Source: Candidatus Bathyarchaeia archaeon
GTDB lineage: Archaea; Thermoproteota; Bathyarchaeia; Bathyarchaeales; Bathycorpusculaceae
Reading direction: 5' to 3'
Length of the DNA stretch: 64,000 bases
Assembly (NCBI GenBank): GCA_049512935.1
Contig: JBEKWR010000006.1
Span: 1-64,000 of the forward strand
Each line of letters opens with the position of its first letter. The first letter of the stretch is position 1. Below, piece after piece: positions 663-59,587 of this stretch. The notes under the pieces are model-generated. The model was not told where the DNA came from. It made no database searches and saw nothing but the letters and a program-made list of their open reading frames with translations. Both the position numbers and the translations under genes were made by a program.

Positions 663-709
663 TTATTCCGAAACTCCAGATTGCATTTGTGCTCACTATG
701 GCTCCTACC

Positions 710-997
710 TCAATTAGTGGGTGACGCAATAATTGCTTTTTGGCACCTGCGTCCTTTATGCGGCTTCAATATAATAGTGCTTATGGTGCTTTTTACGCCG
801 TTAATTTTCATTATTTGCTTTTGCAGTATGTCGCGAAACTCTTCAAGAGTTGAAGTGCTAACGAGGGTGACGATGTCATATTCGCCTGCGACTTCATAGA
901 CTTCCTCGATGTTTTCAAGCTTTCGCAGAGCAGCTACTACCTGGTCTATTTGAGTCGTGTCGGCGAAGATGTTGACTGACGCTAAGAACTTACTCAT
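710..997 (-). CDS. Stand-alone Lrp/AsnC ligand-binding (RAM) domain protein
   Basis: VEEVYEVAGEYD-like motif (IEEVYEVAGEYDIV...INGVKSTIS); no HTH; likely start MSKFLASV at 997 after GGAGAAGG (track ORF 710..1081). Confidence 0.8.
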   Translation of the reverse strand: MSKFLASVNIFADTTQIDQVVAALRKLENIEEVYEVAGEYDIVTLVSTSTLEEFRDILQKQIMKINGVKSTISTIILKPHKGRRCQKAIIASPTN

Positions 998-1477
998 TGT
1001 GATTCCTTCTCCAATTTGCCTGTAAATCCGAGACTGGAAACGGGCAAGTAGGAAACGAAACGGGACGCCACCGAAATGCAAAACATATGAACGCCATTCA
1101 AGTTCAACATAATAATCAGCAAGTCCTAAAGGAGAGTATTATGGAACCTCTTCTAGGTTCTTTCTCATGTTGTTAAAGAAGGCCAGATCGGAGATTCCTC
1201 TGTTTTTGCCTTGAGGAATTTCAGTTTCAACATAGTTCAATTTTTGACCCTCTTTTTCTCCTTTCACATATGGTTATTTACGCTCTTATATAAGGTTAAT
1301 TGTGATTTGTTCACACTTTTCGATAATGCATGAACTTTTTTGTAAAAAAAGTTGAAAAAAATAGAAAAAAAGCCTAGAAAACCAGAACATCTTTGAAAAT
1401 TCTTTGTTTATGCTGTGTAAATTCTGAGCAAAAGAATCGTTTTAGTAAGTATGGTTTGACACGTTTGTGCGTGTTAG

Positions 1478-3154
1478 TTAATTCTTGGCGCGTTTGTTCA
1501 ATGCGTGCTCATGCTCTTGGACGGATCTGCCTGATGGGTCAGCCATTTTGGCAAACTCCTCGCTCCATCTGAAGGCTGTCGGGGTAGAACAGGCAATTGT
1601 TGGACCAATTGGAACAGTTAAAGCTGCAGAGGGGCAAGTGAAGTAGTTGTCAAAAATCTGCCTGTAGAAGTACTCCTCCTTTGACGCTGGCGTCTGAACC
1701 GGGAACTTAGTTTTAGCCTTGCCCATCATTTCATCCGTAACTGCGCTTTCAGCGTGTTTTTTGAGGTAATCTATCCATCCGTAGCCGACGCCGTCGCTGA
1801 ATTGCTCTTTTTGGCGCCAAAGAATCTCGTCAGGAATGTAGCCTTCAAACGCCTTTCTCAGCACGTACTTTTCGATCTTGTCGCCTGAGCACATTTTCTC
1901 CTGCGGGTCAAAACCCATGGCAAAATCCAAGAACTCCCTGTCCAAAAAGGGCACGCGGGTTTCAACGCCCCAAGCGGCGGTTGCTTTGTTTGCTCGCAAG
2001 CAATCGTATTTGCTCAGCATGAAGAGTTTGCGTACGGTTTCCTCGTAGAATTCCTGCTTGTTTGGTGCTTTGTGGAAGTAGAGGTAGCCGCCGAAGACTT
2101 CGTCTGCGCCTTCGCCTGAGAGGACCATTTTTATGCCCATGGATTTTATTTTTCGAGCCATCAAATACATGGGTGTAGCAGCGCGGATCGTGGTAACGTC
2201 GAAGGTTTCAAGGTGGTAAATGACGTCTCGTATGGCGTCGAAGCCTTCCTGAATGGTAAAAATTATCTCATGATGCACCGTGCCGATGTAGTCTGCGACT
2301 TTCCTTGCGTACTTCAAATCAGGCGAATCAGCCAACCCAACAGCGAACGAGTGCAGACGCGGCCACCACGCCTCCTCCCTGTCTCCAGATTCCACCCGTT
2401 TCTTCCTGTATTTTGAAGCGATGGCAGCAATCAGCGAAGAATCCAGCCCGCCTGAAATAAGAACCCCGTAAGGAACATCAGACATCATTTCTCCCTTAAC
2501 GGATTTCTCCAAAGCTTTTCTAAGGTCCGAGAGAACCAGCTTTTTGGTGGGAATTTTCTCTGCCCATTCAGGCGTGTACCACCTGACAAAATCTTCCCCG
2601 CCGTTTCCCAGTAAGTAGTGTCCAGGCGGGAACTCTTTGACTGTGGTACAGTAGTCGTTTAGGGCTTTCATTTCGCTGGCGACATAAAAGGTTCCTTTGT
2701 CATCCCAGCCGACGTAGAGCGGGATGATGCCGATGTGGTCTCTTGCGACGAAAAACGCGCCTTTGCCCTTGTCGTACAGGACGAAAGCGAACATGCCGTT
2801 TAGCATGTTCAAGAAGTCTGGACCGTACTCGTCGTAAAGATACAGAATTATTTCGCAGTCGGACTTGGTCTGCCACAAATGCTCCTTCTCAAGTTTCCCG
2901 TGAAGAAGCATGTGGTTGTAGATTTCACCGTTCACCGCCAAAACGTTACCGTTAATCCTGTCAAACAAGGGTTGCGCGCCATGCTCAACATCAACAATCG
3001 AGAGCCGCTCATGCGCAAGAACCGCCTTATCATCACTGTAAATGCCGCTCCAATCAGGTCCCCTATGCCTAAGTTTAGTAGCCATTCTCAAGGCTTTGTC
3101 ACGTGCTTGGGGCACGGGCTCAGAAATGTTGAAAATCCCCACTATTCCGCACAT
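1478..3154 (-). CDS. asnB: Asparagine synthetase B (glutamine-hydrolysing)
   Basis: N-terminal MCGI, RHRGPD, NGEIYN, SGGLDSS, SGEGADEVFGGY, RQKEQFSDGVG. Confidence 0.97.
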   Translation of the reverse strand: MCGIVGIFNISEPVPQARDKALRMATKLRHRGPDWSGIYSDDKAVLAHERLSIVDVEHGAQPLFDRINGNVLAVNGEIYNHMLLHGKLEKEHLWQTKSDCEIILYLYDEYGPDFLNMLNGMFAFVLYDKGKGAFFVARDHIGIIPLYVGWDDKGTFYVASEMKALNDYCTTVKEFPPGHYLLGNGGEDFVRWYTPEWAEKIPTKKLVLSDLRKALEKSVKGEMMSDVPYGVLISGGLDSSLIAAIASKYRKKRVESGDREEAWWPRLHSFAVGLADSPDLKYARKVADYIGTVHHEIIFTIQEGFDAIRDVIYHLETFDVTTIRAATPMYLMARKIKSMGIKMVLSGEGADEVFGGYLYFHKAPNKQEFYEETVRKLFMLSKYDCLRANKATAAWGVETRVPFLDREFLDFAMGFDPQEKMCSGDKIEKYVLRKAFEGYIPDEILWRQKEQFSDGVGYGWIDYLKKHAESAVTDEMMGKAKTKFPVQTPASKEEYFYRQIFDNYFTCPSAALTVPIGPTIACSTPTAFRWSEEFAKMADPSGRSVQEHEHALNKRAKN

Positions 3155-3299
3155 AATTTCAACTCCTAGAGGCTTAAACAGATATTTTAAGGTAGATCTG
3201 AAAAAGAGAGGCTTTAGATAAGGAAATGCAGGGCATCCGAATTGTAGCTAAAAAATAAGAAGTTTTGGGATTATACCCAGTCAAACGACAACTGCAGGC

Positions 3300-44100: not shown

Positions 44101-44433
44101 TTAGTCTGTCGTTTTTTTTCCCGCTCTCTTGTAGAAGTTCTTCATGTCTTCCTCTAAATCTTCTCTATCGTATTGAGAGACCGTTTTCTTCTGCTTGAAA
44201 TAGTCCATCATCTCTCTAACAGACACGCCAGAGTCCATTGCAGCCCGCTCCAAAGTTATTGATCCATCAGCATAACGTTTCGCCGCGTACTCTTTCTTCC
44301 AGTCCATCACAGCCTTGTAGAGGAGCTTTCTAAGTACAGTTGAGCGGTCTGTTTGCTCCACGCCCTCTATCTTCTTAATGTCCGATACTAAGGTTTCAGG
44401 CAGTCTTGCAGCAACCATCTCTTCCTTCTTCAT
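44101..44433 (-). CDS. UPF0175-like antitoxin (RHH + HTH)
   Basis: ARLPE...DRSTVLRKLL; Y..G.ITLERAA..SGVS. Confidence 0.8.
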   Translation of the reverse strand: MKKEEMVAARLPETLVSDIKKIEGVEQTDRSTVLRKLLYKAVMDWKKEYAAKRYADGSITLERAAMDSGVSVREMMDYFKQKKTVSQYDREDLEEDMKNFYKRAGKKTTD

Positions 44434-44948
44434 TTTCTCACCTTCCTAGCCATGTTAATAATCTCAGTTGTAACATCCGTAGATATCCACATCACCTTTG
44501 CCAGTTTAGCAAAGTCTTCAACCAACTCATCGTAATTAATCAGTTTACAAACGAACGCTTCGTACAACACCATAACGGTGCCTCTATACTCCAAATCCCA
44601 ACTCTTCGCAATGGCTCGGGCTTCTTTATCATCGAGTATTATGAGTGCTTTTTCATCTTTTGCAAGAGTTAAAGCTTCAGCCTCGCCTAAACCAATCCTC
44701 ATCTCACCAATTAGCCTCTGCACTGTTTCATCTTGGCTCTCTGTTGGTTCGGTTACTGTGATCCAGCCTTCCTCAATGGCTTTTTCAATTTCTAAAGCAT
44801 CACTGGCGCCAAGCTCCTTTCCTTTGTCCACACTTTCAACCTTCACTGAGTGCGAGATTATGACTGTACCGTAAAGATCCCGTAGCAGTTTTAGCCTTCC
44901 GATCTTAGCTAAACAGATTAACGGTGACGTATTCGATGTTACTTTCAT
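44430..44948 (-). CDS. PIN-domain protein (DUF3368-like)
   Basis: SNTSPLI.LAKIG.L.LL, GEAEAL.LA, LDDKEAR, GT. Confidence 0.88.
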   Translation of the reverse strand: MKVTSNTSPLICLAKIGRLKLLRDLYGTVIISHSVKVESVDKGKELGASDALEIEKAIEEGWITVTEPTESQDETVQRLIGEMRIGLGEAEALTLAKDEKALIILDDKEARAIAKSWDLEYRGTVMVLYEAFVCKLINYDELVEDFAKLAKVMWISTDVTTEIINMARKVRK

Positions 44949-45220: not shown

Positions 45221-46159
45221 ATGCCGTTTAAAACCGTAAAGAAGGATGCGGCAGATGCCTTAACGATAGAATGGGGTTTGCAAGTTAAAAATTACAAGTT
45301 AACCCTTGACAAGAAACGCTGCGTCAGCTGCCAAATATGCAGTTTAGCCTGCCCGAAAGAGGCGATAACAGTGCAGAAGCAGCCTAAAGTTGCGGGGGAA
45401 AAAGCCAAAAGAGCCAAAGTCGACGTTGACTTGGCGAAGTGCAATTTCTGCGGAATCTGCGACGTCACATGCCCCTACGGCGCAATCAGGGTTACTTTGA
45501 ACGACAAGCACGAGCTTAACCTTCTGGCGAAGGACAGCTTTCCACAGCTTGTCAGGGACATAAAAGTTGACACGCGCCACTGCACCAAAGAATGCGTCGA
45601 ATGCGAAACAGCCTGTCCCTTAGGGTTGATAACGGTGTCTAAAGTCGGTTTTGACGGCAAACCAGTGGAAAACGTTGATGCCCTGTCGCCGAGCGCTAAA
45701 GACCGCGTTCAGGTTAGCCTCGCCATCAAAAGCGAGTACTGCCCAACTTGCAGGGTGTGCGAGTTCAAATGCAGCCCAGGCACCATAAAAGTCAAGAAAG
45801 CCTACGACGGCGTAATCGCCATCACACAGGAAAAATGCCCAGAAGGCTGCACAGACTGCCTTGACGTTTGCCCAATCCCAGGCGCGCTTGTTCTCGAAGA
45901 AGACAAGAAAGTTCATGTTAACGATTTGTTCTGCACTTACTGCGGCGCATGCAAAAACGTTTGCCCCGTTCCCGAAGCCCTCATGGTTAAACGCACGGCA
46001 ATACACCACACACCCATCCATTCAGGCGCGTGGAACAAAGCCTTAGAAAGATTAACCTCGCCAGCTGACGCGGCTAAAGAGTTCCGAAGCGTGGCTGGTG
46101 AGAGCAGGCGCAAGGCAGTAGGTAAAAGATTCCCAGCCTTTGAGGAGACGGAAAAATGA
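45221..46159 (+). CDS. Polyferredoxin (MvhB/FwdF-like, about six 4Fe-4S motifs)
   Basis: Repeated CxxCxxCxxxCP motifs; directly upstream of hdrA. Confidence 0.9.
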
Positions 46160-46205
46160 GCACATCACAAACTTCCAAAAGATTCAACTTAGAGGAGATA
46201 ATGAA

Positions 46206-48713
46206 ATGAGCAAACCAGAAGCCCCAAAACAACCCGAAACCCAAAAACCAGAAGAACTGCGGATCGGCGTTTTCATCTGCCACTGCGGCATGAACATCGC
46301 AGGAACCGTGGACGTACCATCAGTCGCCGAGTACGCAAGAACCATACCCGACGTAGTCTACGTTAAAGAAAACCGCTACACCTGCGCTGACCCGGGACAA
46401 GAAGAAATCAGAAAAGCAATAAAAGAACAAAAATTGAACCGTGTCGTCGTAGCCGCTTGTAGCCCAAGGATGCATGAGCCAACATTTCGGAAAACCGTAA
46501 GTGAAGCAGGGTTAAATCCCTATGTGTTTGAAATGGCGAACATACGCGAGTTCGCTTCTTGGTGCCATCCCAATGCTCCAAAAGAAGCCACAGCAAAAGC
46601 AAAAGATATCGTAAGGATGGCTGTCGCCAAGGCGAGGCTGCTTAAGCCTCTTGAAACCATGGAGGTTCCTGTAACCAAAAACGCCTTGGTTATCGGCGGC
46701 GGCATTGCCGGCATCAACTCCGCTCTGGATTTGGCGAATATGGGGTTCCAAGTATACCTTGTCGAGAAGAACACGAGCATAGGAGGACACATGGCACAGC
46801 TCGACAAGACTTTTCCGACTTTGGATTGCAGCATATGAATTGAAGGACCTAGGATGGTGGAGGTAAATCGCCATCCTAAGGTCCAAGTAATAACCAATGC
46901 GGACATCCTCAGTGTGGAGGGGTTTGTAGGCAATTTCAAAGTTAAGGTCCGCAAGAACCCAAAGTACGTTGATGCCAAAAAATGTACTGGCTGCGGGGAA
47001 TGCAAAGACGCCTGCCCAATAGAATATCCCAATGAGTGGGATATGAACTTAGGCGTAAGAAAAGCCATCTCCATTCCGTTTGACCAAGCAGTGCCTCTGA
47101 TCTACTCGATAAACAGGGATTACTGCATAGAGTGCTTCAAATGCGTGGATGCCTGTGGTGCGCGTGAAGCCATCAACTTTGACCAAAAGCCCGAAGAAGT
47201 TGAATTGGACGTTGGAGCAATCATTGTAACAACGGGTTGTGACATTTATCTACCATATGATGACGCCACGTACGGCTATGGAAGATACGATAACGTAGTT
47301 ACAGCTTTGGAGTTTGAGAGACTCATCACAGCGGGCGGTCCAACAAGTGGACACGTAGTCCGCTCATCCGATGGAAAGACACCGAAAAGCGTTGCCATCA
47401 TTCAATGCGTCGGTTCAAGGGACGTAAACAAGTACGAATACTGTTCAGGTTTCTGCTGCATGTATGGGCTCAAAGAAGCCATCCTTCTGAAAGAACATTA
47501 CCATGATGACGTGGAAGTCTACATTTTCTACATGGATATGCGCACTCCCGCCAAAGGTTATGAAGAATTCTATCGACGAGCCCGTGAAAAGGGAATTACC
47601 TTCGTCATGGGAAAGCCGTCCCGAATAATGGAAGACCCAAAGACCAAAAATTTGATTATCCGAGCAGAGGACACGAAGCTGGGGCAGCCCATCGAAGTCG
47701 AAGCGGAGATGGTTGTGTTAAGCACAGCCGCCATACCGAGTAAGGGAGCCGAAGAATTGGCCAGCATCCTCCACATAACGCGAGGGTCAGACGGGTTCTT
47801 CATGGAAAGTCACCCGAAACTCAAACCAATGGACACGCCTATGGACGGAGTATTCCTAGCAGGTGCTTGCCAAGGACCAAAGGACATACCCTACAGCGTA
47901 GCCCAAGGAAGCGGCGCGGCTTCAAGAGCTGCCACCATTCTTTCGCAGCCGAAATGGAAGATAGAACCGATTGTCTCCATCGTTGACGTCGCCAAATGCA
48001 GAAACCCGAAAGCAAAGTGCGGTGTATGCGTGAAAAGCTGCCCCTTCGGAGCCATAACCGCGGTTGAGGGGCAACCAGCCCAGATCAACGCAGCTCAGTG
48101 CCATGGCTGCGGAACATGCGTTGCTGAATGCCCACAAGACGCCATAACCCAGATGCACTTTACGGATGAACAAATAACCTCACAAATCAGAGCCGCGCTG
48201 GAAAGGGACCCTGAAGACATTATACTGACGTTTATGTGTAACTGGTGAGGTTACGCCGGCGCGGACCGAGCGGGGACGAGCCGGCTTGAATACCCTCCGA
48301 CGACGAGGGCTATTCGGGTAATGTGCACAGGACGGGTAGACAGAGACTTCGTCATGGAAGCCTTTAGACTGGGAGCCGGAGGCGTATTGATTACCGCCTG
48401 CCATCTTCCCAACGACTGCCACTACATCTCTGGAAACGTCAGGATGAAAGCGCGCATGGATGCCTTAGCTGGCATGCTTCAAAAGCTTGGATTGAGCCCG
48501 CATAGATTCAGGGTTGAGTACGTTTCGTCAGCTGAAGGAGAGAAATTCGTCAGCATCATCAAGGAAATGACTAGTCAAATGCAAGCTTTAGGCAAAGACA
48601 AGATACTCGCGGAAAACGCAAAGCTTCGACCAACCTTAGAGAACATGCTGAAACGCAAAGCAGCCGCCCCAGCCCCTGCAGCTAAACCCGCCGATCAAGC
48701 ACCCGCAAAGTAG
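46206..48713 (+). CDS. hdrA: HdrA-MvhD fusion selenoprotein (835 aa; Sec at residues 211 and 681)
   Basis: Track ORFs 46140.., 46854.. and 48321.. are one frame broken only by TGA at 46836-38 ([18 protein letters not shown]) and 48246-48 (FMCNW-U-GYAGAD). HdrA motifs [30 protein letters not shown]; MvhD motifs MCTGRV, CHY. ATG 46206 has a GGAG RBS. Confidence 0.92.
46845..46884 (+). promoter_or_regulatory. Candidate Sec-recoding hairpin 6 nt 3' of the first UGA
   Basis: GGACCT-AGGATGGTG-loop(GAGGTAAAT)-CGCCATCCT-A-AGGTCC: 15 bp, one G-U, one bulged A. Confidence 0.7.
48255..48285 (+). promoter_or_regulatory. Candidate Sec-recoding hairpin 6 nt 3' of the second UGA
   Basis: GCCGGC/GCCGGC 6-bp GC stem, G-A mismatch, CG/CG, internal loop, CC-GAGC-GG. 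Confidence 0.5.
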
Positions 48714-49114
48714 GCAAAGAATTGGCTCCTGAGCCATTGCGGTTGGGTGGAAGGTTCTTGTGGCAGTATGGGCTGTTCGATACGGATATCTTTAGCCTTG
48801 GCGGTAAGCTCAACACCTAGAGCCTTGACTTTCTGGGTCTTGTCATCTATAATAGCTCACTTTCAACATGTATAATCAACTTATCTTTTTGTGAATTGGC
48901 TAACTGTTAAGAGTCAACTAATGTCAGGAAGTGCCTGCAGATCCTTTCCTCGATTATCTAAAGCACAAGTTTTAAAAACAAATTAAACAATACCAGAATT
49001 TGTCCTCTATTTAATTGCTGAAGGACTGGGAAGATAATCCGATCCAGATGGAAATGCCTCACAATTCTCTGTTTAATACTTATCTTAGTCGCAAGCTTAG
49101 GTTTACCCGCTAAA

Positions 49115-50215
49115 GTGAAAGCACAATCAAATGGATTAACCCAACAGATTCCGCCGATGGACTTACACCCCGTAACGACTCAGCCTCAGCCTGATGGCGG
49201 CTTCATTAAAGATTGTGGTGTTTCTCAAGACGATGTCTGCAGCTCAAGCTGGATGGTATGGAGGGATTACACGCAGATGGGCAACCCGCTAACTGAGAAA
49301 CTGGAGGGTGGCTTTGGAGAAACCGTCAACGGAACTGAGTTTACTCTGGGCTTCGGTCTAACCTCATTTATTCCTCCACCCCAAGCCCCAAATATTCCGG
49401 TGGGAACGATAAGCCAGACAACAGACAACCCATGCGGAATCTGGATAAGCTGCCAGTACGGAGCATTCCCAATCTGGCTCTACAATGCCACAGACGTGAC
49501 AACAAATTCAGGTCAGGTCACAACAGTCAATGGGTTGCCGAGTGTCACACTTAATGAGACATTCAGCAACATCCAGCTCGACACAGGCGGGCACGGTGAC
49601 TCCACAGTGAATCTTGTTGTAAGCCAACAAATAACTGGTAACGCCACCACCATGATAGCTCAAGTCAATGTCTACGCCGACCTGAGCAACATGCACTTTT
49701 ACCTGCCTGACGGCACAGAGATACCGCAGGGCACCGACTACTCACTTAACCTCCTGTGGATAACTGGATTATCCAATGGAACCGAGTCGGCACAGCTCGG
49801 ATACTTTACTGCTTATCCATATACAATCATCGGGAACTCATTATACTTCATTGTGAACGGCGAAGTAGGCAACATTGCAGGCATAACTTTAAGCGACAAA
49901 TACGTGGAAAGCCAAGGTGCAAATCAAATGTCAAGCCGCCAAGCACAAGTCCAGTTCATAAGCACTAACGCAACTGTGGGTGCACATCGTGCACCAGAGT
50001 GCCTCTGTCTCCAAACGTTCCCAAACCTGACCTACGGAGTTACTACTAGCGTGCAGAGCGACCCCACCATCTACATGAACCATGCATTAATGTCGACTCT
50101 TCCCCTAATCACTCTCATTGTTGTCGTGGCTGTTGTAATTGCTGCATGCGTCGTTCTTTTCCGATATCGAAAAAGATTCAGGAAGGGAGCTAAAAAAATA
50201 AATGCCGAAACTTAA
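49115..50215 (+). CDS. Hypothetical secreted/surface protein with C-terminal TM anchor
   Basis: Thr/Asn-rich ectodomain, C-terminal TM then RYRKRFRK; open frame extends upstream through a signal-peptide-like stretch to about 49034. Confidence 0.75.
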   Translation: MKAQSNGLTQQIPPMDLHPVTTQPQPDGGFIKDCGVSQDDVCSSSWMVWRDYTQMGNPLTEKLEGGFGETVNGTEFTLGFGLTSFIPPPQAPNIPVGTISQTTDNPCGIWISCQYGAFPIWLYNATDVTTNSGQVTTVNGLPSVTLNETFSNIQLDTGGHGDSTVNLVVSQQITGNATTMIAQVNVYADLSNMHFYLPDGTEIPQGTDYSLNLLWITGLSNGTESAQLGYFTAYPYTIIGNSLYFIVNGEVGNIAGITLSDKYVESQGANQMSSRQAQVQFISTNATVGAHRAPECLCLQTFPNLTYGVTTSVQSDPTIYMNHALMSTLPLITLIVVVAVVIAACVVLFRYRKRFRKGAKKINAET

Positions 50216-50302
50216 TGCTTAATGAAATCCCAAGCTTGTGGCTTGATAGTATTCTGGGACTTTTCTTAATCTAATCATTAAAATCACCCAACGCGCGTTT
50301 CT

Positions 50303-50475
50303 GAGCGGAATATGTCTATGTTGCCGAGTGAATACAGAAATCGCACTGCGAGAAAAATTATTCAGCAGCTGAAGGCATCAATCGGGGCGTCCCACGGCTA
50401 GGCGGTCATAGCATCGGACTTCAAATCCGGTGAGCCCGCAAGGTCTCGGAATCCGATTCCCCTTGGACGCCGCCA
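50303..50475 (+). repeat. Direct repeat copy 1 (upstream region + tRNA-Sec); partner 51341..51514
   Basis: Both begin GAGCGGAATATGT...CGAGTGAATACAGAAATCGCACT and end at the tRNA CCA. Confidence 0.9.
50386..50475 (+). tRNA. selC: tRNA-Sec(UCA), copy 1 (D- and T-stem mismatches; variant or pseudogene)
   Basis: 90 nt, anticodon TCA at 50421-23; 4 differences from copy 2. Confidence 0.8.
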
Positions 50476-50504
50476 CTATACCACTGCAAAATCTGGCAAG
50501 AAAT

Positions 50505-50942
50505 TCACTTGAAAGGATTTACGACGTTTAGAAAGTTATATTTCTTGAAGTCATCAACATTTTCTGTATAAATGCATTCCACTTTGTCATCTTTGGCTGT
50601 GACCGCCATGGCGCAGTCGAAAATCTTGCCTTTAGTCACTTTCATTTCCTTCGTTAACCTCAAAACGTCCATGACTGCATTCGATGCTGGATTGATCTTC
50701 TCGATTTCGCGGCATTCCCAAAAGTCGAGGCATACATTTACGGCTTCACTTAATTTCATTGGAGACTCCACTCTCTTGGGATTCGTGATTACCGCAAAAA
50801 ATTCATATATCACTTGTGCAGTCAAACATGCATCAAGTTTTCCAGTCATCGCATCCTCAATTACGGCGCTGGCGCGTTTCTGAAAAGGAGATGACTTGTT
50901 ATGGGCGTGAACAAGGATATTGGTGTCAAGTAATGTCTTCGT
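50505..50942 (-). CDS. VapC-like PIN toxin; full domain starts at an ACG codon (50942)
   Basis: Frame extends upstream of the track ORF to (M)KTLLDTNILVHA; ...EFFAVIT...IFDC.....IYTENVDDF. Confidence 0.8.
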   Translation of the reverse strand, partial: TKTLLDTNILVHAHNKSSPFQKRASAVIEDAMTGKLDACLTAQVIYEFFAVITNPKRVESPMKLSEAVNVCLDFWECREIEKINPASNAVMDVLRLTKEMKVTKGKIFDCAMAVTAKDDKVECIYTENVDDFKKYNFLNVVNPFK

Positions 50943-51168: not shown

Positions 51169-51424
51169 GCACTCATCATTTACCCAATAAGTTGGGCAAA
51201 ATATAAGCGTTTACCCAAAGACTCACCCAAACCCTTGTGAAAACGAGTAGCAAGAAGCTTGAAAGATTCGATTGAAAGATAAAGCCCGAAGGATAATTAA
51301 TGAACGCTGCAGAAGCTTAAAATGGGTCTACAGCGGTCCAGAGCGGAATATGTTTATTTTGGCGAGTGAATACAGAAATCGCACTTCGAGACAAATTGCT
51401 TCATAGCTGAAAGCACCAGTTGAG

Positions 51425-51514
51425 GGCGTCCCACGGCTAGGTGGTCCTAGCATCGGACTTCAAATCCGGTGAGCCCGCAAGGTCTCGGGGTCCGATTCCC
51501 CTTGGACGCCGCCA
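51425..51514 (+). tRNA. selC: tRNA-Sec(UCA), copy 2 (intact 9/4 archaeal-eukaryotic fold)
   Basis: 90 nt. Acceptor GGCGTCCCA/TTGGACGCC (9 bp, one C-U); D-stem GCTAGG-TGGT-CCTAGC; anticodon arm ATCGGA-CTTCAAA-TCCGGT; long variable arm with GCAA loop; T-arm GGGG-TCCGATT-CCCC; G73 and CCA. Confidence 0.95.
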
Positions 51515-52064: not shown

Positions 52065-53396
52065 TCACGTCACTGTTTTCAAAACGGTGTCTAACCTCTC
52101 TGCTGCTGTGGTGATTTCGTTTTTTTGTATTCCTATGCTGGCGTCGAAGTTGATGTAGGATGAGACGTACTGTGGGCAGCACACTCCGAAATCGTTTTTT
52201 TCCAGCGCTCTTGCGCCGTTGACCCTTGCCGCGTACAAGGCTTTGCCTATTTTCTTGGCGTCTCTTCCATCTAGCGTCATAGCCACGGATATTGGATTGT
52301 AAACATTCAGTATTCGCTGTCCGTGCCTCTCCGCCACCGCCTTGAGGGATGATTCAAGGAACCGCCTGTTTTCTTCCTGCTGGGTTCTCAGCTTCTCGTA
52401 CCCGTCTAATCCTATCGACAGTACGGCTGCTAGGAACTGCGCTATGGGAGCGGCTGTTGCCCTTCCCGCGTAGATTTCAGACACGGCGTCTAGGAATTCT
52501 TCGTTGGGCGCGGCGACTATTGCTCCTCCGACTGGGGTTAGGAAATTCTTGTCTGTGCTCTGGATTATGGCGTCCACGCGTCCTGCGTCGATTGCGCCTC
52601 TTACGAGTTTCATGATTTCGCGGCTCTGCACTCCGAAGGCGTTGTTTATGATATGCGGCACTTTCTTCTCCTGTGCGATCTTTGCGATTTCTTTGATTTT
52701 ATCTGGTTCTCTGGGTGAAAAGAAAGTGGTTGTTGACAGAATCGCGGCGGTATTTTCGTTAACTGCTTTTTCTATCTCTTCTGGGGGAACGTTCACTGCG
52801 TCTCCGCAGACTTCTCCTGCCACTATTCTTTCTTGAAGACCTGCAAGATGAATCGCCTTCAGTGGAGTTTTAAGGTCAATCTGTGGGTAAACAACCTCTT
52901 TTCCCCCAGTTTGGTTTCTTGCGGCGCACAAGGCAAGAGCAAGCGTCATTCCTGTTGCCACAGGAAAAACCACCGCCTTCTTGATGTTTGGAACCCCGAA
53001 CCTTTTCATGGCGTCAGTTGCCAATTTGTTAGCGAAATAATACATGAGAGACCCACCTGCCGCCTTAGGCTGGGCTTCGGTCAGGTCACCTGACCTTCCT
53101 ACCCCATGATGAAATCCAAATGCCAGCTTTGAAACCACTGGAGAAGCAACCCTGCCCTCGCGTTCGCCTAAGAAAACTGCTTTGCTGTCCTTGTCCGAAT
53201 CCATTGCAGACAGCAGATTCAGCAGCGTTTCGATTTGGCTGTCTTTCCAGCCTTCTTTTGGTATTCTTCTTTGCTCGAAAAGTAGTTTTATCGACTGGGA
53301 CTCTGTGCCCAGCACTGTCAAGCCCCTTTCAAGTATGCTCTTTGGGATTGTGTCCTTCAACTTATCAAACGGCAACATAAAACATACCTTTAGCAC
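52065..53396 (-). CDS. spcS: O-phosphoseryl-tRNA(Sec) selenium transferase (SepSecS)
   Basis: GEREGRV, HGVGRSGDL..AQPKAAG, PVATGM, HIINNAFG, IQSTDKNFLTPVGG (PLP Lys), YAGRA. Confidence 0.95.
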   Translation of the reverse strand: MLKVCFMLPFDKLKDTIPKSILERGLTVLGTESQSIKLLFEQRRIPKEGWKDSQIETLLNLLSAMDSDKDSKAVFLGEREGRVASPVVSKLAFGFHHGVGRSGDLTEAQPKAAGGSLMYYFANKLATDAMKRFGVPNIKKAVVFPVATGMTLALALCAARNQTGGKEVVYPQIDLKTPLKAIHLAGLQERIVAGEVCGDAVNVPPEEIEKAVNENTAAILSTTTFFSPREPDKIKEIAKIAQEKKVPHIINNAFGVQSREIMKLVRGAIDAGRVDAIIQSTDKNFLTPVGGAIVAAPNEEFLDAVSEIYAGRATAAPIAQFLAAVLSIGLDGYEKLRTQQEENRRFLESSLKAVAERHGQRILNVYNPISVAMTLDGRDAKKIGKALYAARVNGARALEKNDFGVCCPQYVSSYINFDASIGIQKNEITTAAERLDTVLKTVT

Positions 53397-54127: not shown

Positions 54128-56323
54128 GTGTCGCAGAGTTATCCTTACCTGCTTATAATGTGCGGATTGCCTAGTTCAGGAAAGACCACCATCAGCAAAA
54201 ACGTCGCCTCCCTGCTTGAGGACAAACACGAGATATCGACCATGGTCATCAGCTCGGACGATTTTCGGGACATGCTCTCGTACAGCTCCAAAGGATTCAA
54301 GCCTGAGCGGGAAGCGTCGGTGAAGGCTCTTTATGAGAAGGCGATTGCAACTGGTTTGGAAGCTGGTTTTCTCGTCATCAGCGATGACTTAAACTACTAC
54401 AAATCGATGAGGAGCGAGCTTAGGCAGATTGCTAAACGGTCAGGCTCCGACTACGACATTGTCTTTGTTGATACACCCGTTGAGGTAGCCGTCAAATGGA
54501 ACCAAGAACGAGGGTCGCCGATACCGCAGTCCCTCATTGAGGAAATCAATCAGAAACTTGACCCGCCCAAAGGCGACTACAAATGGGACACTCCCCTCGC
54601 CGTTGTCGACCCAAGCAAGCAAAGCTTAGAGGGAATCGCCAGTGCCATCGTTACTGCGGTTCTGAAGAGGCTGGAAAACCCGATTAGGTCCAAGCCCAAA
54701 AAAGTTGTGGAAGACGAGAAATCACTGAGGGCAAGAGGCATTGAGCGGGAAACCCGAAAAGCCATGATGGAGGTCATGACGCGGTACAAGAACCCGGACT
54801 TGGGCATTTCTCTTTCCGCCATCAGAAAAGAAGTGGTGCACAAGGCGCTGGCGGACGGCTTGAAGCCTGTAGATGCGGTCGAATTGTTCCTCAGGGAAGC
54901 CAATGCGGTCGCAAAAAGTTACGCCGTGACTGAAGGCAAGGGCCTCATTCCCGTTCATGTGGGTCTTTTCGGGCATGTTGACCACGGCAAGACAATGATT
55001 GCCCGGCAGCTAACTGAGAAACCTTCGACGGCTGCATTGGACAAGGCACCGGACTCCGCCCGCCGTGGAATGACGCTGGACATGGGCTTCTCCGCTTTCA
55101 CCTTAGGTCCGTACCTGGCTACTCTCGTCGACTTGCCGGGGCACTTCAGCTTGGTCAGGCATGCGGTGGCGGGCGCCAACATAATTGACGCGGCGGTGCT
55201 GGTTGTGTCCGCCGACCTCGGATTGCAGGTTCAGAGCGTGGAGCATTTCGCAATAATCAAAGACGTGGGAATAAAGAATCTTGTAGTTGCCCTCAACAAG
55301 GTTGATTTGGCGTCCAAAGAGAGAATTGATGAAGTCAAGACAAAAGTCAAGCTTCTCCTAAAGGGAACTCCATACGAGAACGCAAAGATTGTGGAGGTCT
55401 CAGCCTTAACTGGCAAGGGAATTGATGAACTCAAACGCGCCTTGCAAGATTCCATCAGTCCACCCATTCGCCAGTGGAATGGCCCGTTCAAGATGCCTAT
55501 CGACCACGCATTCACCATAGCCGGAGTAGGAACTGTCTTAACTGGCACGATTCACCGTGGGAAAGTTAAGGTGAAAGACACCGTTGAAATCAAGCCCATC
55601 GACAAAAAAGGTCAAGTGCGTTCGCTGCGGTCATTCGGCGAGGACAAAGAGGAAGCTATCGCTGGAGACAGGGTAGGCGTCGCCGTCAAAGACCTAAAAC
55701 CTGATGACGCTCACAGGGGTTACGTAGCCGTTTCTCCTGGCTCCATCAGTTCTACCCGCCGAGTGATAATCGAGTTGGAAGTGGACAAGTACTATCTGCG
55801 TCCGTTGACGCCGTACAGCGATGTAGATGTGTTTGTTGGGTCTTATGAAGTGCTGGGAAACGTTGTGCCCGGCGCCGTGGAAGACGGCAAGTTCGTTGTG
55901 AAGCCGTCGGTGAAGGCTCCTGAAAAATGCCTAGTTTACATAGAACTCAGACAACAAGTCGTGGCGGAAAGAGGAGACCACATGCTCTTGATGAACCCTG
56001 GACTCCAAGCCCGCGAATTCCGAATAATCGGCGGAGGAAGAATCACTGAGACAGACAGCAAACTGGAATTCTTCTCAAAAAAGACCAAACAGGGAACTGC
56101 AGGACAAAAAAGAGAAGCCGACGAGTACTCAGTGACGGGTCTCTTTGGCACCTCGGAAGCTGCCTCCAAATTCGTGGGAAAACAAGTTGTTACAGCAACG
56201 GGAGTTACAGGCGAAATCAGGGCTTCGCTGTCATTGGGCGAAGTTTCAGTCAAGTTCAAAGAACCCGTGCACGAAGGCGAAAAAGTATTTCTCTACGTCT
56301 ACAAGAAGTTAAAAATCAAATAG
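54128..56323 (+). CDS. selB: Fusion of L-seryl-tRNA(Sec) kinase (PSTK) and Sec-specific elongation factor SelB
   Basis: N-terminal ~270 aa: CGLPSSGKTT, SSDDFR, DDLNYYKSMR, WN.ERG, YKWDTP. C-terminal: GHVDHGKT, RGMTLDMGF, DLPGH, NKVD, PIDHAF, VRSL, FRIIG and a short archaeal-type domain IV. Confidence 0.92.
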   Translation: MSQSYPYLLIMCGLPSSGKTTISKNVASLLEDKHEISTMVISSDDFRDMLSYSSKGFKPEREASVKALYEKAIATGLEAGFLVISDDLNYYKSMRSELRQIAKRSGSDYDIVFVDTPVEVAVKWNQERGSPIPQSLIEEINQKLDPPKGDYKWDTPLAVVDPSKQSLEGIASAIVTAVLKRLENPIRSKPKKVVEDEKSLRARGIERETRKAMMEVMTRYKNPDLGISLSAIRKEVVHKALADGLKPVDAVELFLREANAVAKSYAVTEGKGLIPVHVGLFGHVDHGKTMIARQLTEKPSTAALDKAPDSARRGMTLDMGFSAFTLGPYLATLVDLPGHFSLVRHAVAGANIIDAAVLVVSADLGLQVQSVEHFAIIKDVGIKNLVVALNKVDLASKERIDEVKTKVKLLLKGTPYENAKIVEVSALTGKGIDELKRALQDSISPPIRQWNGPFKMPIDHAFTIAGVGTVLTGTIHRGKVKVKDTVEIKPIDKKGQVRSLRSFGEDKEEAIAGDRVGVAVKDLKPDDAHRGYVAVSPGSISSTRRVIIELEVDKYYLRPLTPYSDVDVFVGSYEVLGNVVPGAVEDGKFVVKPSVKAPEKCLVYIELRQQVVAERGDHMLLMNPGLQAREFRIIGGGRITETDSKLEFFSKKTKQGTAGQKREADEYSVTGLFGTSEAASKFVGKQVVTATGVTGEIRASLSLGEVSVKFKEPVHEGEKVFLYVYKKLKIK

Positions 56324-59112: not shown

Positions 59113-59409
59113 TTAGTCTTCTTCGTCGAATCCGCGGTTTTTGATTTTAAGCTGGTTTTCTTTTTCGCCGATGACTCTGAACCGTTCTGTCAGGTCATGC
59201 TTGTGCAGAAACTTCTTTACAGTTATCTTCACGTACTTCTTGCTTAGTGCTTCGCCTTCGCCTTTCACCGTGACAACTTGCTCTGCCGTGGACACTTCCC
59301 CGCCTGTTTTCTCCTTCAGGAAATCTGACAGCTTCGAAACCAGGTCCTTCTCCTCGTGTTTAAGATCTGACGCGTCGACTTTCATCTCAACAACTTTTGA
59401 TTCACTCAT
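59113..59409 (-). CDS. rpl22e: Ribosomal protein eL22 (L22e) homologue
   Basis: VDAS...DFLKEK...VTV....SKKYVKITVKKFLHKHDL.ERFRVI resembles eukaryotic SKRYLKYLTKKYLKK.NLRDWLRVV; ATG 59409 after GAGGTG. Confidence 0.8.
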   Translation of the reverse strand: MSESKVVEMKVDASDLKHEEKDLVSKLSDFLKEKTGGEVSTAEQVVTVKGEGEALSKKYVKITVKKFLHKHDLTERFRVIGEKENQLKIKNRGFDEED

Positions 59410-59587
59410 ATTCAATTCACCTCGGTTCACGTGCGCCCATAAGCTCATGTTTAGCAATGCATCTCACTAAAGCTTCACTGATAAGTTTTCCGCTGCCAAC
59501 CCACCCGCACATCCAAAAGAAAAGCAACGAAAACGTCAACCTATGCCATTTTGGGTGCAGCACAACCTAGCGGGAAAATGTTGGGGG

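Follow-up and report, generated by a model that had tools for sequence, protein, structure and literature searches.

The archaeal users of selenocysteine (Sec) named in the available parts of a 2024 survey (PMC11227280) and a 2026 review (PMC13188914) are only the Methanococcales, the Methanopyrales and the Asgard archaea. Archaeal and eukaryotic Sec insertion sequences (SECIS) are described as lying in untranslated regions (UTRs) and bacterial ones as lying within the open reading frame (ORF), and the factor that binds the archaeal SECIS is given as unidentified (PMC11881835, PMC13188914). Here, we describe a gene, hdrA-mvhD, in a 64,000-nt stretch of DNA (the window; positions 1 to 64,000 of contig JBEKWR010000006.1, assembly GCA_049512935.1, below contig C6 of genome G000) from a Candidatus Bathyarchaeia archaeon. 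The gene very probably encodes a genuine selenoprotein with two Sec residues, an HdrA2-type fusion of a peat Bathyarchaeon, and a stable hairpin is predicted inside the ORF directly after each of its two UGA codons.

The HdrA and VhuD selenoproteins of the Methanococcales and Methanopyrus belong to the same two families, share the Sec position of HdrA (Cys/Sec197) and, as it appears, one of the two reported VhuD Sec positions, and have partners of the kinds predicted for the window protein, namely HdrBC, the [NiFe] hydrogenase MvhAG/VhuAG and a polyferredoxin. The window protein differs from them in being a fused polypeptide, in having Cys at the second VhuD site and in coming from a non-methanogen-type Bathyarchaeon; moreover, no GAA_A-type SECIS was found in the UTR of its gene, which instead has hairpins within the ORF. 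The hdrA-vhuD genes described from Lokiarchaeota and other Asgard archaea (PMC4989117, PMC11227280) likewise specify multi-Sec HdrA and VhuD from one mRNA in non-methanogens, with UGAs up to ~2 kb apart, but as separate cistrons with one shared, eukaryote-like kink-turn (K-turn) SECIS after vhuD, whereas the window has a fused ORF and one hairpin per UGA. A fusion of HdrA to a C-terminal MvhD-like domain is also present in the Methanosarcina-type HdrA2 (of HdrA2B2C2; NF040770). That enzyme, however, is a Cys protein. The likely partners of the window protein include the MvhGA hydrogenase. The Methanosarcina enzyme uses F420H2 and ferredoxin. In the placement of its putative signals, the window gene resembles bacteria, in which the SECIS likewise lies in the ORF directly after the UGA, with one element per UGA; unlike that of bacteria, its Sec pathway is of the archaeal/eukaryotic kind (PSTK and SepSecS rather than SelA) and its SelB lacks the C-terminal SECIS-binding domains.

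A Sec gene cluster with PSTK and aSelB fused in one ORF beside SepSecS and tRNA-Sec has been published for the Bathyarchaeota (Mukai et al. 2022, PMC8762117), and the window, which contains this arrangement, is a member of that published system. The same paper describes a U6:U67 acceptor mismatch for a wetland lineage; in the window tRNA-Sec, the mismatch is C:U and lies at acceptor pair 8. The available text of PMC8762117 names no selenoprotein and does not use the terms HdrA, SECIS, hairpin or stem-loop, and that of its supplement contains no HdrA, SECIS, selenoprotein, VhuD or contig Ga0105158, although Fig. 9B of the paper may well depict this hdrA-type gene. The Bathyarchaeota Sec system, HdrA-MvhD fusions and the presence of Sec in HdrA and VhuD are already known. 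In open papers and preprints, we found no description of Sec signals within the ORF in archaea or of a Bathyarchaeial SECIS; nor did we find in print a two-Sec fusion that seems to be the only client of the machinery or, above all, a separate hairpin within the ORF for each Sec codon in a gene without a UTR SECIS.

The hdrA-mvhD gene occupies a single frame on the (+) strand, from an ATG at 46206 to a TAG at 48711-48713 (835 codons), in which the only internal stops are two TGAs, and its 5′ UTR is only 46 nt long. A standard ORF listing cuts it into three pieces (46140-46838, 46854-48248 and 48321-48713; 232, 464 and 130 aa). Both the split into three ORFs and the single frame with TGA at codons 211 and 681 had been proposed in a preliminary description of this DNA, and the continuous frame is confirmed by translation and by conservation in relatives. 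Specifically, among 30 orthologues (the window gene included) drawn from 41 genomes of the genus and order, the two TGA columns hold TGA only in the window genome and in G009, and all 28 Cys-type orthologues have Cys there, which bears out the earlier placement of both TGAs at conserved Cys columns. The gene is present in 14 of the 15 loci found by way of SepSecS, as is the PSTK-SelB gene. Both TGAs occur in all 13 full-length Sec-type copies first collected and in three further genomes (G333, G086 and G345), giving 16 genome copies in total; site 1 is TGA in 24 of 80 metagenome loci and site 2 in 20 of them. None of the Sec-type copies has a frameshift, and amino acid conservation is strong on either side of the TGAs. 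Such recurrence across genome copies and metagenome loci excludes a sequencing error or a chance stop. TGA terminates 303 of the 1105 ORFs of at least 250 aa in the genome and is therefore an ordinary stop codon that has not been reassigned. A tree of 50 sequences groups the 16 Sec-type copies in a single clade, next to the Cys-type clade of the same family (FastTree support for the Sec clade was not usable after re-rooting), and the second hdrA-mvhD copies found in L052 and L061 are Cys-type.

Public sequencing runs containing the stretch are labelled peat and wetland metagenomes, and they were compared as contigs rather than as raw reads. The second TGA is bridged with 0 differences by contigs of two independent DNA runs (X1 and X4). 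Depth in X1 and X2 covers the first, for which the listed variants include none and the listed error-free DNA contigs include no bridging one; an RNA-library contig of a relative extends 27 nt across it, which is no proof of transcription. The verification of both TGAs in reads that had been suggested earlier was thus achieved for the second TGA at the level of contigs, and the first is depth-covered only. A broken gene, be it a pseudogene, a source of three small products or an assembly error, would account for the three ORFs of the gene callers, but we regard it as extremely improbable: beyond the conservation of both TGAs in 16 genome copies and 20-24 metagenome loci with intact frames and flanks, the breaks would fall inside the thioredoxin-reductase-like domain and the CNWC motif, independent DNA contigs agree at the second TGA, and the window gene is the only HdrA in the genome (2.30 Mb in 49 contigs, 93% complete).

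Residues 16-663 of the read-through product align to residues 2-648 of HdrA in the HdrABC-MvhAGD complex structure (5odc_A; E 7.5e-252), E values of 2e-204 or better were obtained with four more HdrA structures, and residues 671-803 correspond to the MvhD/VhuD chains 7bkb_F, 9sw2_D and 5odc_D, in agreement with the HdrA-MvhD fusion proposed at the outset. Pfam recognizes a Rossmann/FAD segment, two Fer4 dicluster regions and an FlpD/MvhD domain (PF02662, residues 673-796; 153 bits, cut-off 22.3). Among NCBIfam models, HdrA2 (NF040770) matches best: profile positions 1-774 of 777 are covered, and the score of 1075.8 bits lies just below the curated cut-off of 1100. U211 aligns with Cys197 of 5odc_A, a residue described as the in-trans ligand of the N-terminal [4Fe-4S] cluster of HdrA (PMC9012536); in HdrA of Methanococcus maripaludis, the residue is Sec197, and a Cys-Sec redox pair near the FAD has been proposed (PMC13518236). 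The window gene thus has what characterizes an archaeal Sec-HdrA, that is, a UGA near residue 200 at a conserved Cys, with tRNA-Sec, PSTK, SepSecS, aSelB and SelD in the genome. In the MvhD part, the motifs CNWC, MCxGR and C-H...DCHY are all present, with U replacing the second Cys of CNWC. VhuD is reported to contain two Sec ~50 codons apart (PMC4989117), a pair that is not found here: the positions 51 and 57 codons after U681 are Cys, in keeping with the earlier reading of the later MvhD site. Structure-bank VhuD sequences show C at the candidate Sec positions. Of the claim that the two UGAs stand at the Sec positions of methanococcal HdrA and VhuD, the HdrA part holds (Cys/Sec197), and for VhuD one of the two positions is apparently common.

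Because the 3′ regions of the Sec-type genes align poorly, we measured synonymous-site identity along the gene. Among the 13 Sec-type copies, the top 15-codon windows are codons 213-227 (identity 0.97) and 682-696 (0.93), compared with a gene mean of 0.71, and in each of these regions a hairpin is predicted that begins 6 nt after the UGA (Table 1). Of the 2466 42-nt windows of the coding sequence, the two with the lowest energies (-26.0 and -22.3 kcal/mol; gene mean -7.1, sd 3.9) begin at position +10 relative to the UGAs, and on the plus strand of the whole 64 kb, windows at or below -21 occur only at the two hairpin sites and at one unrelated place. When 2303 in-frame TGAs of the genome are ranked by stability at +10, the hairpin sites take ranks 2 and 5; ranks 1, 3 and 4 all lie on a 6.3-kb contig of 68.8% GC that is a likely contaminant. 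Contigs C41 (6314 bp, 68.8% GC) and C45 (3698 bp, 64.1% GC) of G000 are outliers relative to its GC content of ~47% and are probably binning contaminants. In the second hairpin, a 6-bp G+C stem is followed by a small internal loop, then by 2 bp, a possible tandem G-A/A-G and another 2 bp, which close a 5-nt loop. The stems of both hairpins are invariant, while their loops and the flanking synonymous sites vary. Other candidates were rejected: neither the stable window at 52435 (+) nor the most stable one of the SepSecS mRNA shows conservation at synonymous sites, and the TGAs in HdrA-like matches of G336 and in one MvhD-like match of G086 either terminate the frames or fall outside the domains, and no hairpin accompanies any of them.

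The hairpins follow the UGAs from gene to gene. Among genome copies, mean energies at sites 1 and 2 are -25.3 and -22.0 in Sec-type genes (n = 13) versus -7.9 and -8.5 in Cys-type genes (n = 30), with disjoint ranges. Among metagenome loci, site 1 ranges from -18.8 to -27.6 with TGA (n = 24) and from -3.8 to -18.5 without it (n = 56), and site 2 ranges from -21.6 to -22.1 with TGA (n = 20) and from -3.7 to -12.4 without it (n = 52). The only Cys-type outlier is L220, whose value of -18.5 at site 1 is near the Sec-type range (1 of 56; none of 52 at site 2). In the mosaic gene L208, site 1 is Cys without a hairpin and site 2 is TGA with a hairpin. The ends of this gene (metagenome contig, match 701-3226) share 82-98% identity with the window gene and its middle third shares only 43-60% with any of the copies compared, which we take as evidence of recombination between HdrA lineages.

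These distributions bear on the idea that the hairpins have nothing to do with recoding and serve instead as a pause for cofactor insertion, an mRNA stability element or a protein-binding site, their proximity to the UGAs being incidental. The lack of covariation (see below) is compatible with it. Nevertheless, we consider it very unlikely, as the hairpins are confined to UGA-bearing genes, recur there with an identical +10 spacing at two unrelated places, are missing from the 30 Cys orthologues taken from genomes, with L220 as the single near-exception among metagenome loci, and in L208 follow the UGA site by site.

Both hairpins also fall within the four constraints of the bacterial SECIS model, i.e., a loop of 3-9 nt, a G in the first two loop positions, a UGA-to-loop distance of 16-37 nt and an energy of -7.5 kcal/mol or lower (PMC13188914). 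The first has a 7-nt loop with G at loop position 2, 22 nt from UGA to loop and -26.0 kcal/mol; the second has a 5-nt loop with G at loop position 1, 19 nt from UGA to loop and -22.1 kcal/mol. The model is loose, and compliance by itself is weak evidence.

A conventional SECIS was sought elsewhere on the mRNA. Rfam SECIS families gave no match in 46000-49300 at E values up to 10, where the only match was a spurious one to a long non-coding RNA. We then scanned 37 Sec-type downstream regions, each running from 60 nt before the end of the gene to at most 400 nt beyond it, against 50 shuffles. The K-turn pattern of the lokiSECIS/eSECIS (AUGA...GA K-turn core, helix of at least 8 bp, A-rich loop, in the 3′ UTR) occurred in 1 of the 37 regions versus a shuffle mean of 1.0, and the GAA_A-type (eaSECIS) pattern, a UTR hairpin in which three S-S pairs lie above a GAA_A internal loop, likewise occurred in 1 of 37 versus 1.0, so neither an Asgard/eukaryote-like element nor a GAA_A-type one was found in these regions. 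In L052 and L058, where hdrA-mvhD is found at the opposite side of the PSTK-SelB gene with an unrelated AT-rich sequence after it, both UGAs and both hairpins are kept. Two further stretches were rejected as SECIS candidates. One consists of ~35 semi-conserved nt after the stop (13 of 16 loci), in which the small hairpins differ in register and which L052, L058 and L061 lack. The other is a downstream block of ~45 nt that always accompanies tRNA-Sec, even where hdrA-mvhD sits elsewhere, and is therefore an upstream element of tRNA-Sec. This block (51337-51381, also 50299-50345), located 40-90 nt before tRNA-Sec, shows 80-100% conservation in 10 of the 15 related loci; it may function as a leader or a promoter-distal element.

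The genes of the Sec machinery (Table 1), which like the hairpins had not been noted in the preliminary description, sit 2.7-7.6 kb downstream of hdrA-mvhD, and the cluster is kept in 14 of 15 related loci. Residues 276-722 of the PSTK-aSelB protein align to residues 20-475 of the 482 residues of M. maripaludis aSelB (4ac9_A), and the protein ends 9 residues further on, which means that the SelB part is without the bacterial winged-helix C-terminal extension. Of 120 genomes of the genus, 10 were found to have SepSecS, and of 401 sampled genomes of the class, 12 (6 of 131 genera), i.e., the Sec trait is patchy across the class. The UGAs might instead be read partly or mainly as Cys, either through Sep-tRNA(Sec) and SepCysS or by near-cognate read-through, yielding a largely Cys protein; cross-talk between Sep-tRNA(Sec) and SepCysS has been discussed for Bathyarchaeota without SepCysE (PMC8762117). 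However, a dedicated SepSecS, SelD and tRNA-Sec are maintained, and TGC or TGT would be a cheaper route to Cys, one that the paralogues indeed use, making this reading very improbable.

Table 1. Coordinates of the hdrA-mvhD gene, its UGA codons and hairpins, and the associated genes in the window
Feature	Coordinates	Strand	Evidence or details
hdrA-mvhD fusion gene, two Sec codons	46206..48713	+	frame translation, Pfam, structure alignments, NCBIfam
UGA codon 211, canonical HdrA Sec site (equivalent to Cys/Sec197)	46836..46838	+	context LDCSI-U-IEGP
UGA codon 681, second Cys position of CNWC motif, MvhD domain	48246..48248	+	context CNW-U-GYAGAD
Hairpin 1, in-ORF, 6 nt after UGA-211	46845..46884	+	16-bp stem, one bulged A, 7-nt loop, -26.0 kcal/mol predicted
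Hairpin 2, in-ORF, 6 nt after UGA-681	48255..48285	+	~-22 kcal/mol predicted
Polyferredoxin gene, 312 aa, directly upstream of hdrA-mvhD	45221..46159	+	multiple Fer4 dicluster domains
tRNA-Sec, anticodon UCA, 9-bp acceptor and 4-bp T stem	51425..51510	+	ARAGORN; Rfam RF01852, 64.5 bits versus gathering score 47
Degenerate second tRNA-Sec copy	50386..50471	+	95.3% identical to the tRNA-Sec gene; 4 mismatches: D loop, D stem, T stem
SepSecS (O-phosphoseryl-tRNA(Sec) selenium transferase)	52065..53396	-	PF05889, E 1.8e-116; TIGR03531, 483.5 bits versus cut-off 224.85
PSTK-aSelB fusion (Ser-tRNA(Sec) kinase and archaeal Sec elongation factor)	54128..56323	+	KTI12/PSTK residues 8-240, SelB residues 277-642

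We therefore propose the following scheme, which as a whole (Sec at both UGAs, hairpin-driven recoding and a bifurcating module) we favour with moderate confidence. Both UGAs would be read as Sec, with Sec211 at the canonical HdrA position Cys/Sec197 and Sec681 in the CNWC motif of the MvhD domain. Each UGA would be redefined by its own in-frame hairpin starting 6 nt after it, such that with the UGA in the A site the hairpin would stand at the mRNA entrance of the ribosome, where it could recruit or activate the PSTK-aSelB/Sec-tRNA complex or stall the ribosome until this complex beats the release factor; the mode of action may be either factor binding or ribosome pausing. A bacterial style of signal placement would thereby be served by archaeal-type machinery. 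That the hairpins act as cis-acting signals for Sec recoding is, taken separately, likely.

A distinctly less probable alternative, though one to be taken seriously, accepts Sec at both UGAs but makes the hairpins mere helpers, similar to eukaryotic Sec redefinition elements (SREs) or read-through stimulators, that pause the ribosome at the UGA; the SECIS would then lie undetected elsewhere on the mRNA, or there would be none and aSelB would serve any sufficiently paused UGA. Such a role fits an aSelB without an extra RNA-binding domain, and the 6-nt spacer is identical at both sites despite the different hairpin sequences, for which a steric effect at the mRNA entrance is a better fit than sequence-specific recognition. 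The SRE of human SEPN1 also begins 6 nt after its UGA. On the other hand, an SRE alone is insufficient in eukaryotes, the Loki-type and GAA_A-type patterns are at chance level, and no conserved UTR element goes with the gene, which in L052 and L058 lies beyond the PSTK-SelB gene, next to unrelated 3′ sequence. The helper role also gains from SelD. In six other Sec-using Bathyarchaeia (G170, G039, G086, G230, G333 and G345), the SelD gene has a UGA of its own at the Cys15 position, and in three of these (G086, G333 and G345) it has no hairpin, as if the machinery worked without one. These Sec-type SelD genes (loci L248-L251, L253 and L254) often adjoin SepSecS.

Several observations count against the hairpin-driven recoding that we prefer, the first of which again concerns SelD. 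A +10 hairpin is present in the Sec-type SelD of G039 (-16.6) and, more weakly, of G230 (-11.4), but there is little at +10 in G170 (-6.7) and no hairpin in G086, G333 and G345 (-3.2, -8.6 and -6.3), three genomes of the same family as the window genome (f1) that carry the two-hairpin hdrA-mvhD yet a hairpin-less SelD. The flanks of SelD in these three contain no shared conserved non-coding element and no K-turn pattern. These genes, at least, must therefore rely on a different signal; the local hairpin is not a universal requirement in the class, or, alternatively, SelD is decoded differently or less efficiently, and the support for the hairpins from this second selenoprotein family is mixed. 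Second, we found 0 compensatory changes in the 13 pairs of site 1 (23 distinct sequences) and in the 10 pairs of site 2 (12 distinct sequences). With the stems invariant, covariation supports neither side, and the evidence for the structures thus comes from predicted energies, the suppression of synonymous change and the difference from Cys-type genes. Third, the Sec-type genes are 84-93% identical to each other and, as close relatives in one clade, are not independent copies. Furthermore, the aSelB is a standard archaeal one without the winged-helix extension that binds the SECIS in bacteria, so that the reader of the hairpins is only putative; the UTR pattern scans were simple and could miss a divergent element; and the selenoprotein search described below covered 40 of the 45 best of 222 candidates in a genome that is 93% complete. 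It is only a tentative suggestion, at slightly less than even chances, that this lineage of Bathyarchaeia represents a fourth architecture of Sec decoding, with archaeal/eukaryotic machinery, a hairpin within the ORF for each UGA, no UTR SECIS and a single two-Sec client.

Next, we analyzed the partner genes and the remaining selenoproteome. The hdrB and hdrC genes exist in the genome but do not adjoin hdrA-mvhD; they lie in an hdrC-hdrB-mvhG-mvhA operon with a HycI protease gene on contig C3 (G000:C3:120060-123940), where hdrB has two CCG domains and neither hdrA nor mvhD is present. The expectation that the partners are encoded elsewhere was thus correct, and the fusion would provide exactly the two subunits absent from this operon. 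It is reasonably likely that HdrA-MvhD acts with the C3 products, in which case it would give the flavin-bifurcating subunit together with a [2Fe-2S] connector to HdrCB and the MvhGA [NiFe] hydrogenase. The polyferredoxin, whose gene is directly upstream as stated in the preliminary description and occupies this place in 13 of 15 related loci, may be the low-potential acceptor; it has weak NCBIfam matches, under the cut-off, to FwdF and VhuB polyferredoxins. As for the electron-bifurcating module suggested earlier, its partner genes have thus been located, and its function is deduced from the genes. Two more [NiFe] hydrogenase gene sets are found near the hdrCB-mvhGA operon (L077, G000:C3:99000-113500), one with NuoE/F/G-like subunits in a HoxEFU-type arrangement and the other with a Fer4_22/NAD-binding subunit.

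The genome search for a Cys paralogue of hdrA-mvhD that had been advised earlier was run and returned none in the 93%-complete genome. The SelD gene, on contig C11, has Cys at the usual Sec position, as is usual among relatives: in 10 of the 13 genomes of the family with Sec machinery, SelD is without a TGA. To screen for selenoproteins, the 2303 in-frame TGAs were passed through an overlapping-ORF filter, the 222 that remained were ranked by coding potential, and the read-through products of 40 of the 45 best were scanned against Pfam with length limits applied; no further selenoprotein gene was found among these 40. The only Pfam domain spanning a TGA among them belongs to an IS240-family transposase (L093, G000:C5:62560-63603), in which the one in-frame TGA falls within the DDE domain at a non-Cys position; it was rejected as a selenoprotein and is probably a pseudogene or a case of programmed read-through. 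As far as detectable, hdrA-mvhD seems to be the only client of the Sec machinery in this genome.

Further features of the window concern the surroundings of these genes. The degenerate second tRNA-Sec copy is called neither by ARAGORN nor by Rfam at the gathering score, and the ~90 nt that precede the true gene are found before it as well (50299-50486). The two copies flank ~1 kb with a VapC-family PIN gene (50505-50849, (-) strand). In most related loci, tRNA-Sec lies ~270 nt after hdrA-mvhD, as compared to 2.7 kb here, including an unannotated 366-aa ORF (49115-50215), and the region of the extra copy looks like a duplication or an insertion at a tRNA gene. Just upstream of the polyferredoxin/hdrA-mvhD operon, a PIN-domain gene and an upstream UPF0175 gene (44101-44948, (-) strand) are likely a toxin-antitoxin pair, and a small ORF at 59113-59457 on the (-) strand has a weak match to the eukaryote-type ribosomal protein L22e (PF01776, E 1.2e-06).

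The locus offers a natural case of archaeal machinery apparently working with local, per-codon hairpins and bears on the coupling of aSelB to its recoding signal and on the evolutionary shift in SECIS position. If the proposed decoding is true, SECIS position would not be a domain-level trait, and the PSTK-aSelB fusion may be an adaptation that lets the archaeal factor read a signal at the mRNA entrance. The gene also adds the Bathyarchaeia to the archaeal users of selenoproteins, a class omitted from the available parts of the 2024 and 2026 surveys (PMC11227280, PMC13188914). In this organism, a complete Sec system is seemingly maintained for one subunit of a bifurcating enzyme, and since the Sec-type HdrA is the only HdrA of the genome, hydrogen and ferredoxin metabolism should depend on the selenium supply of the peat.

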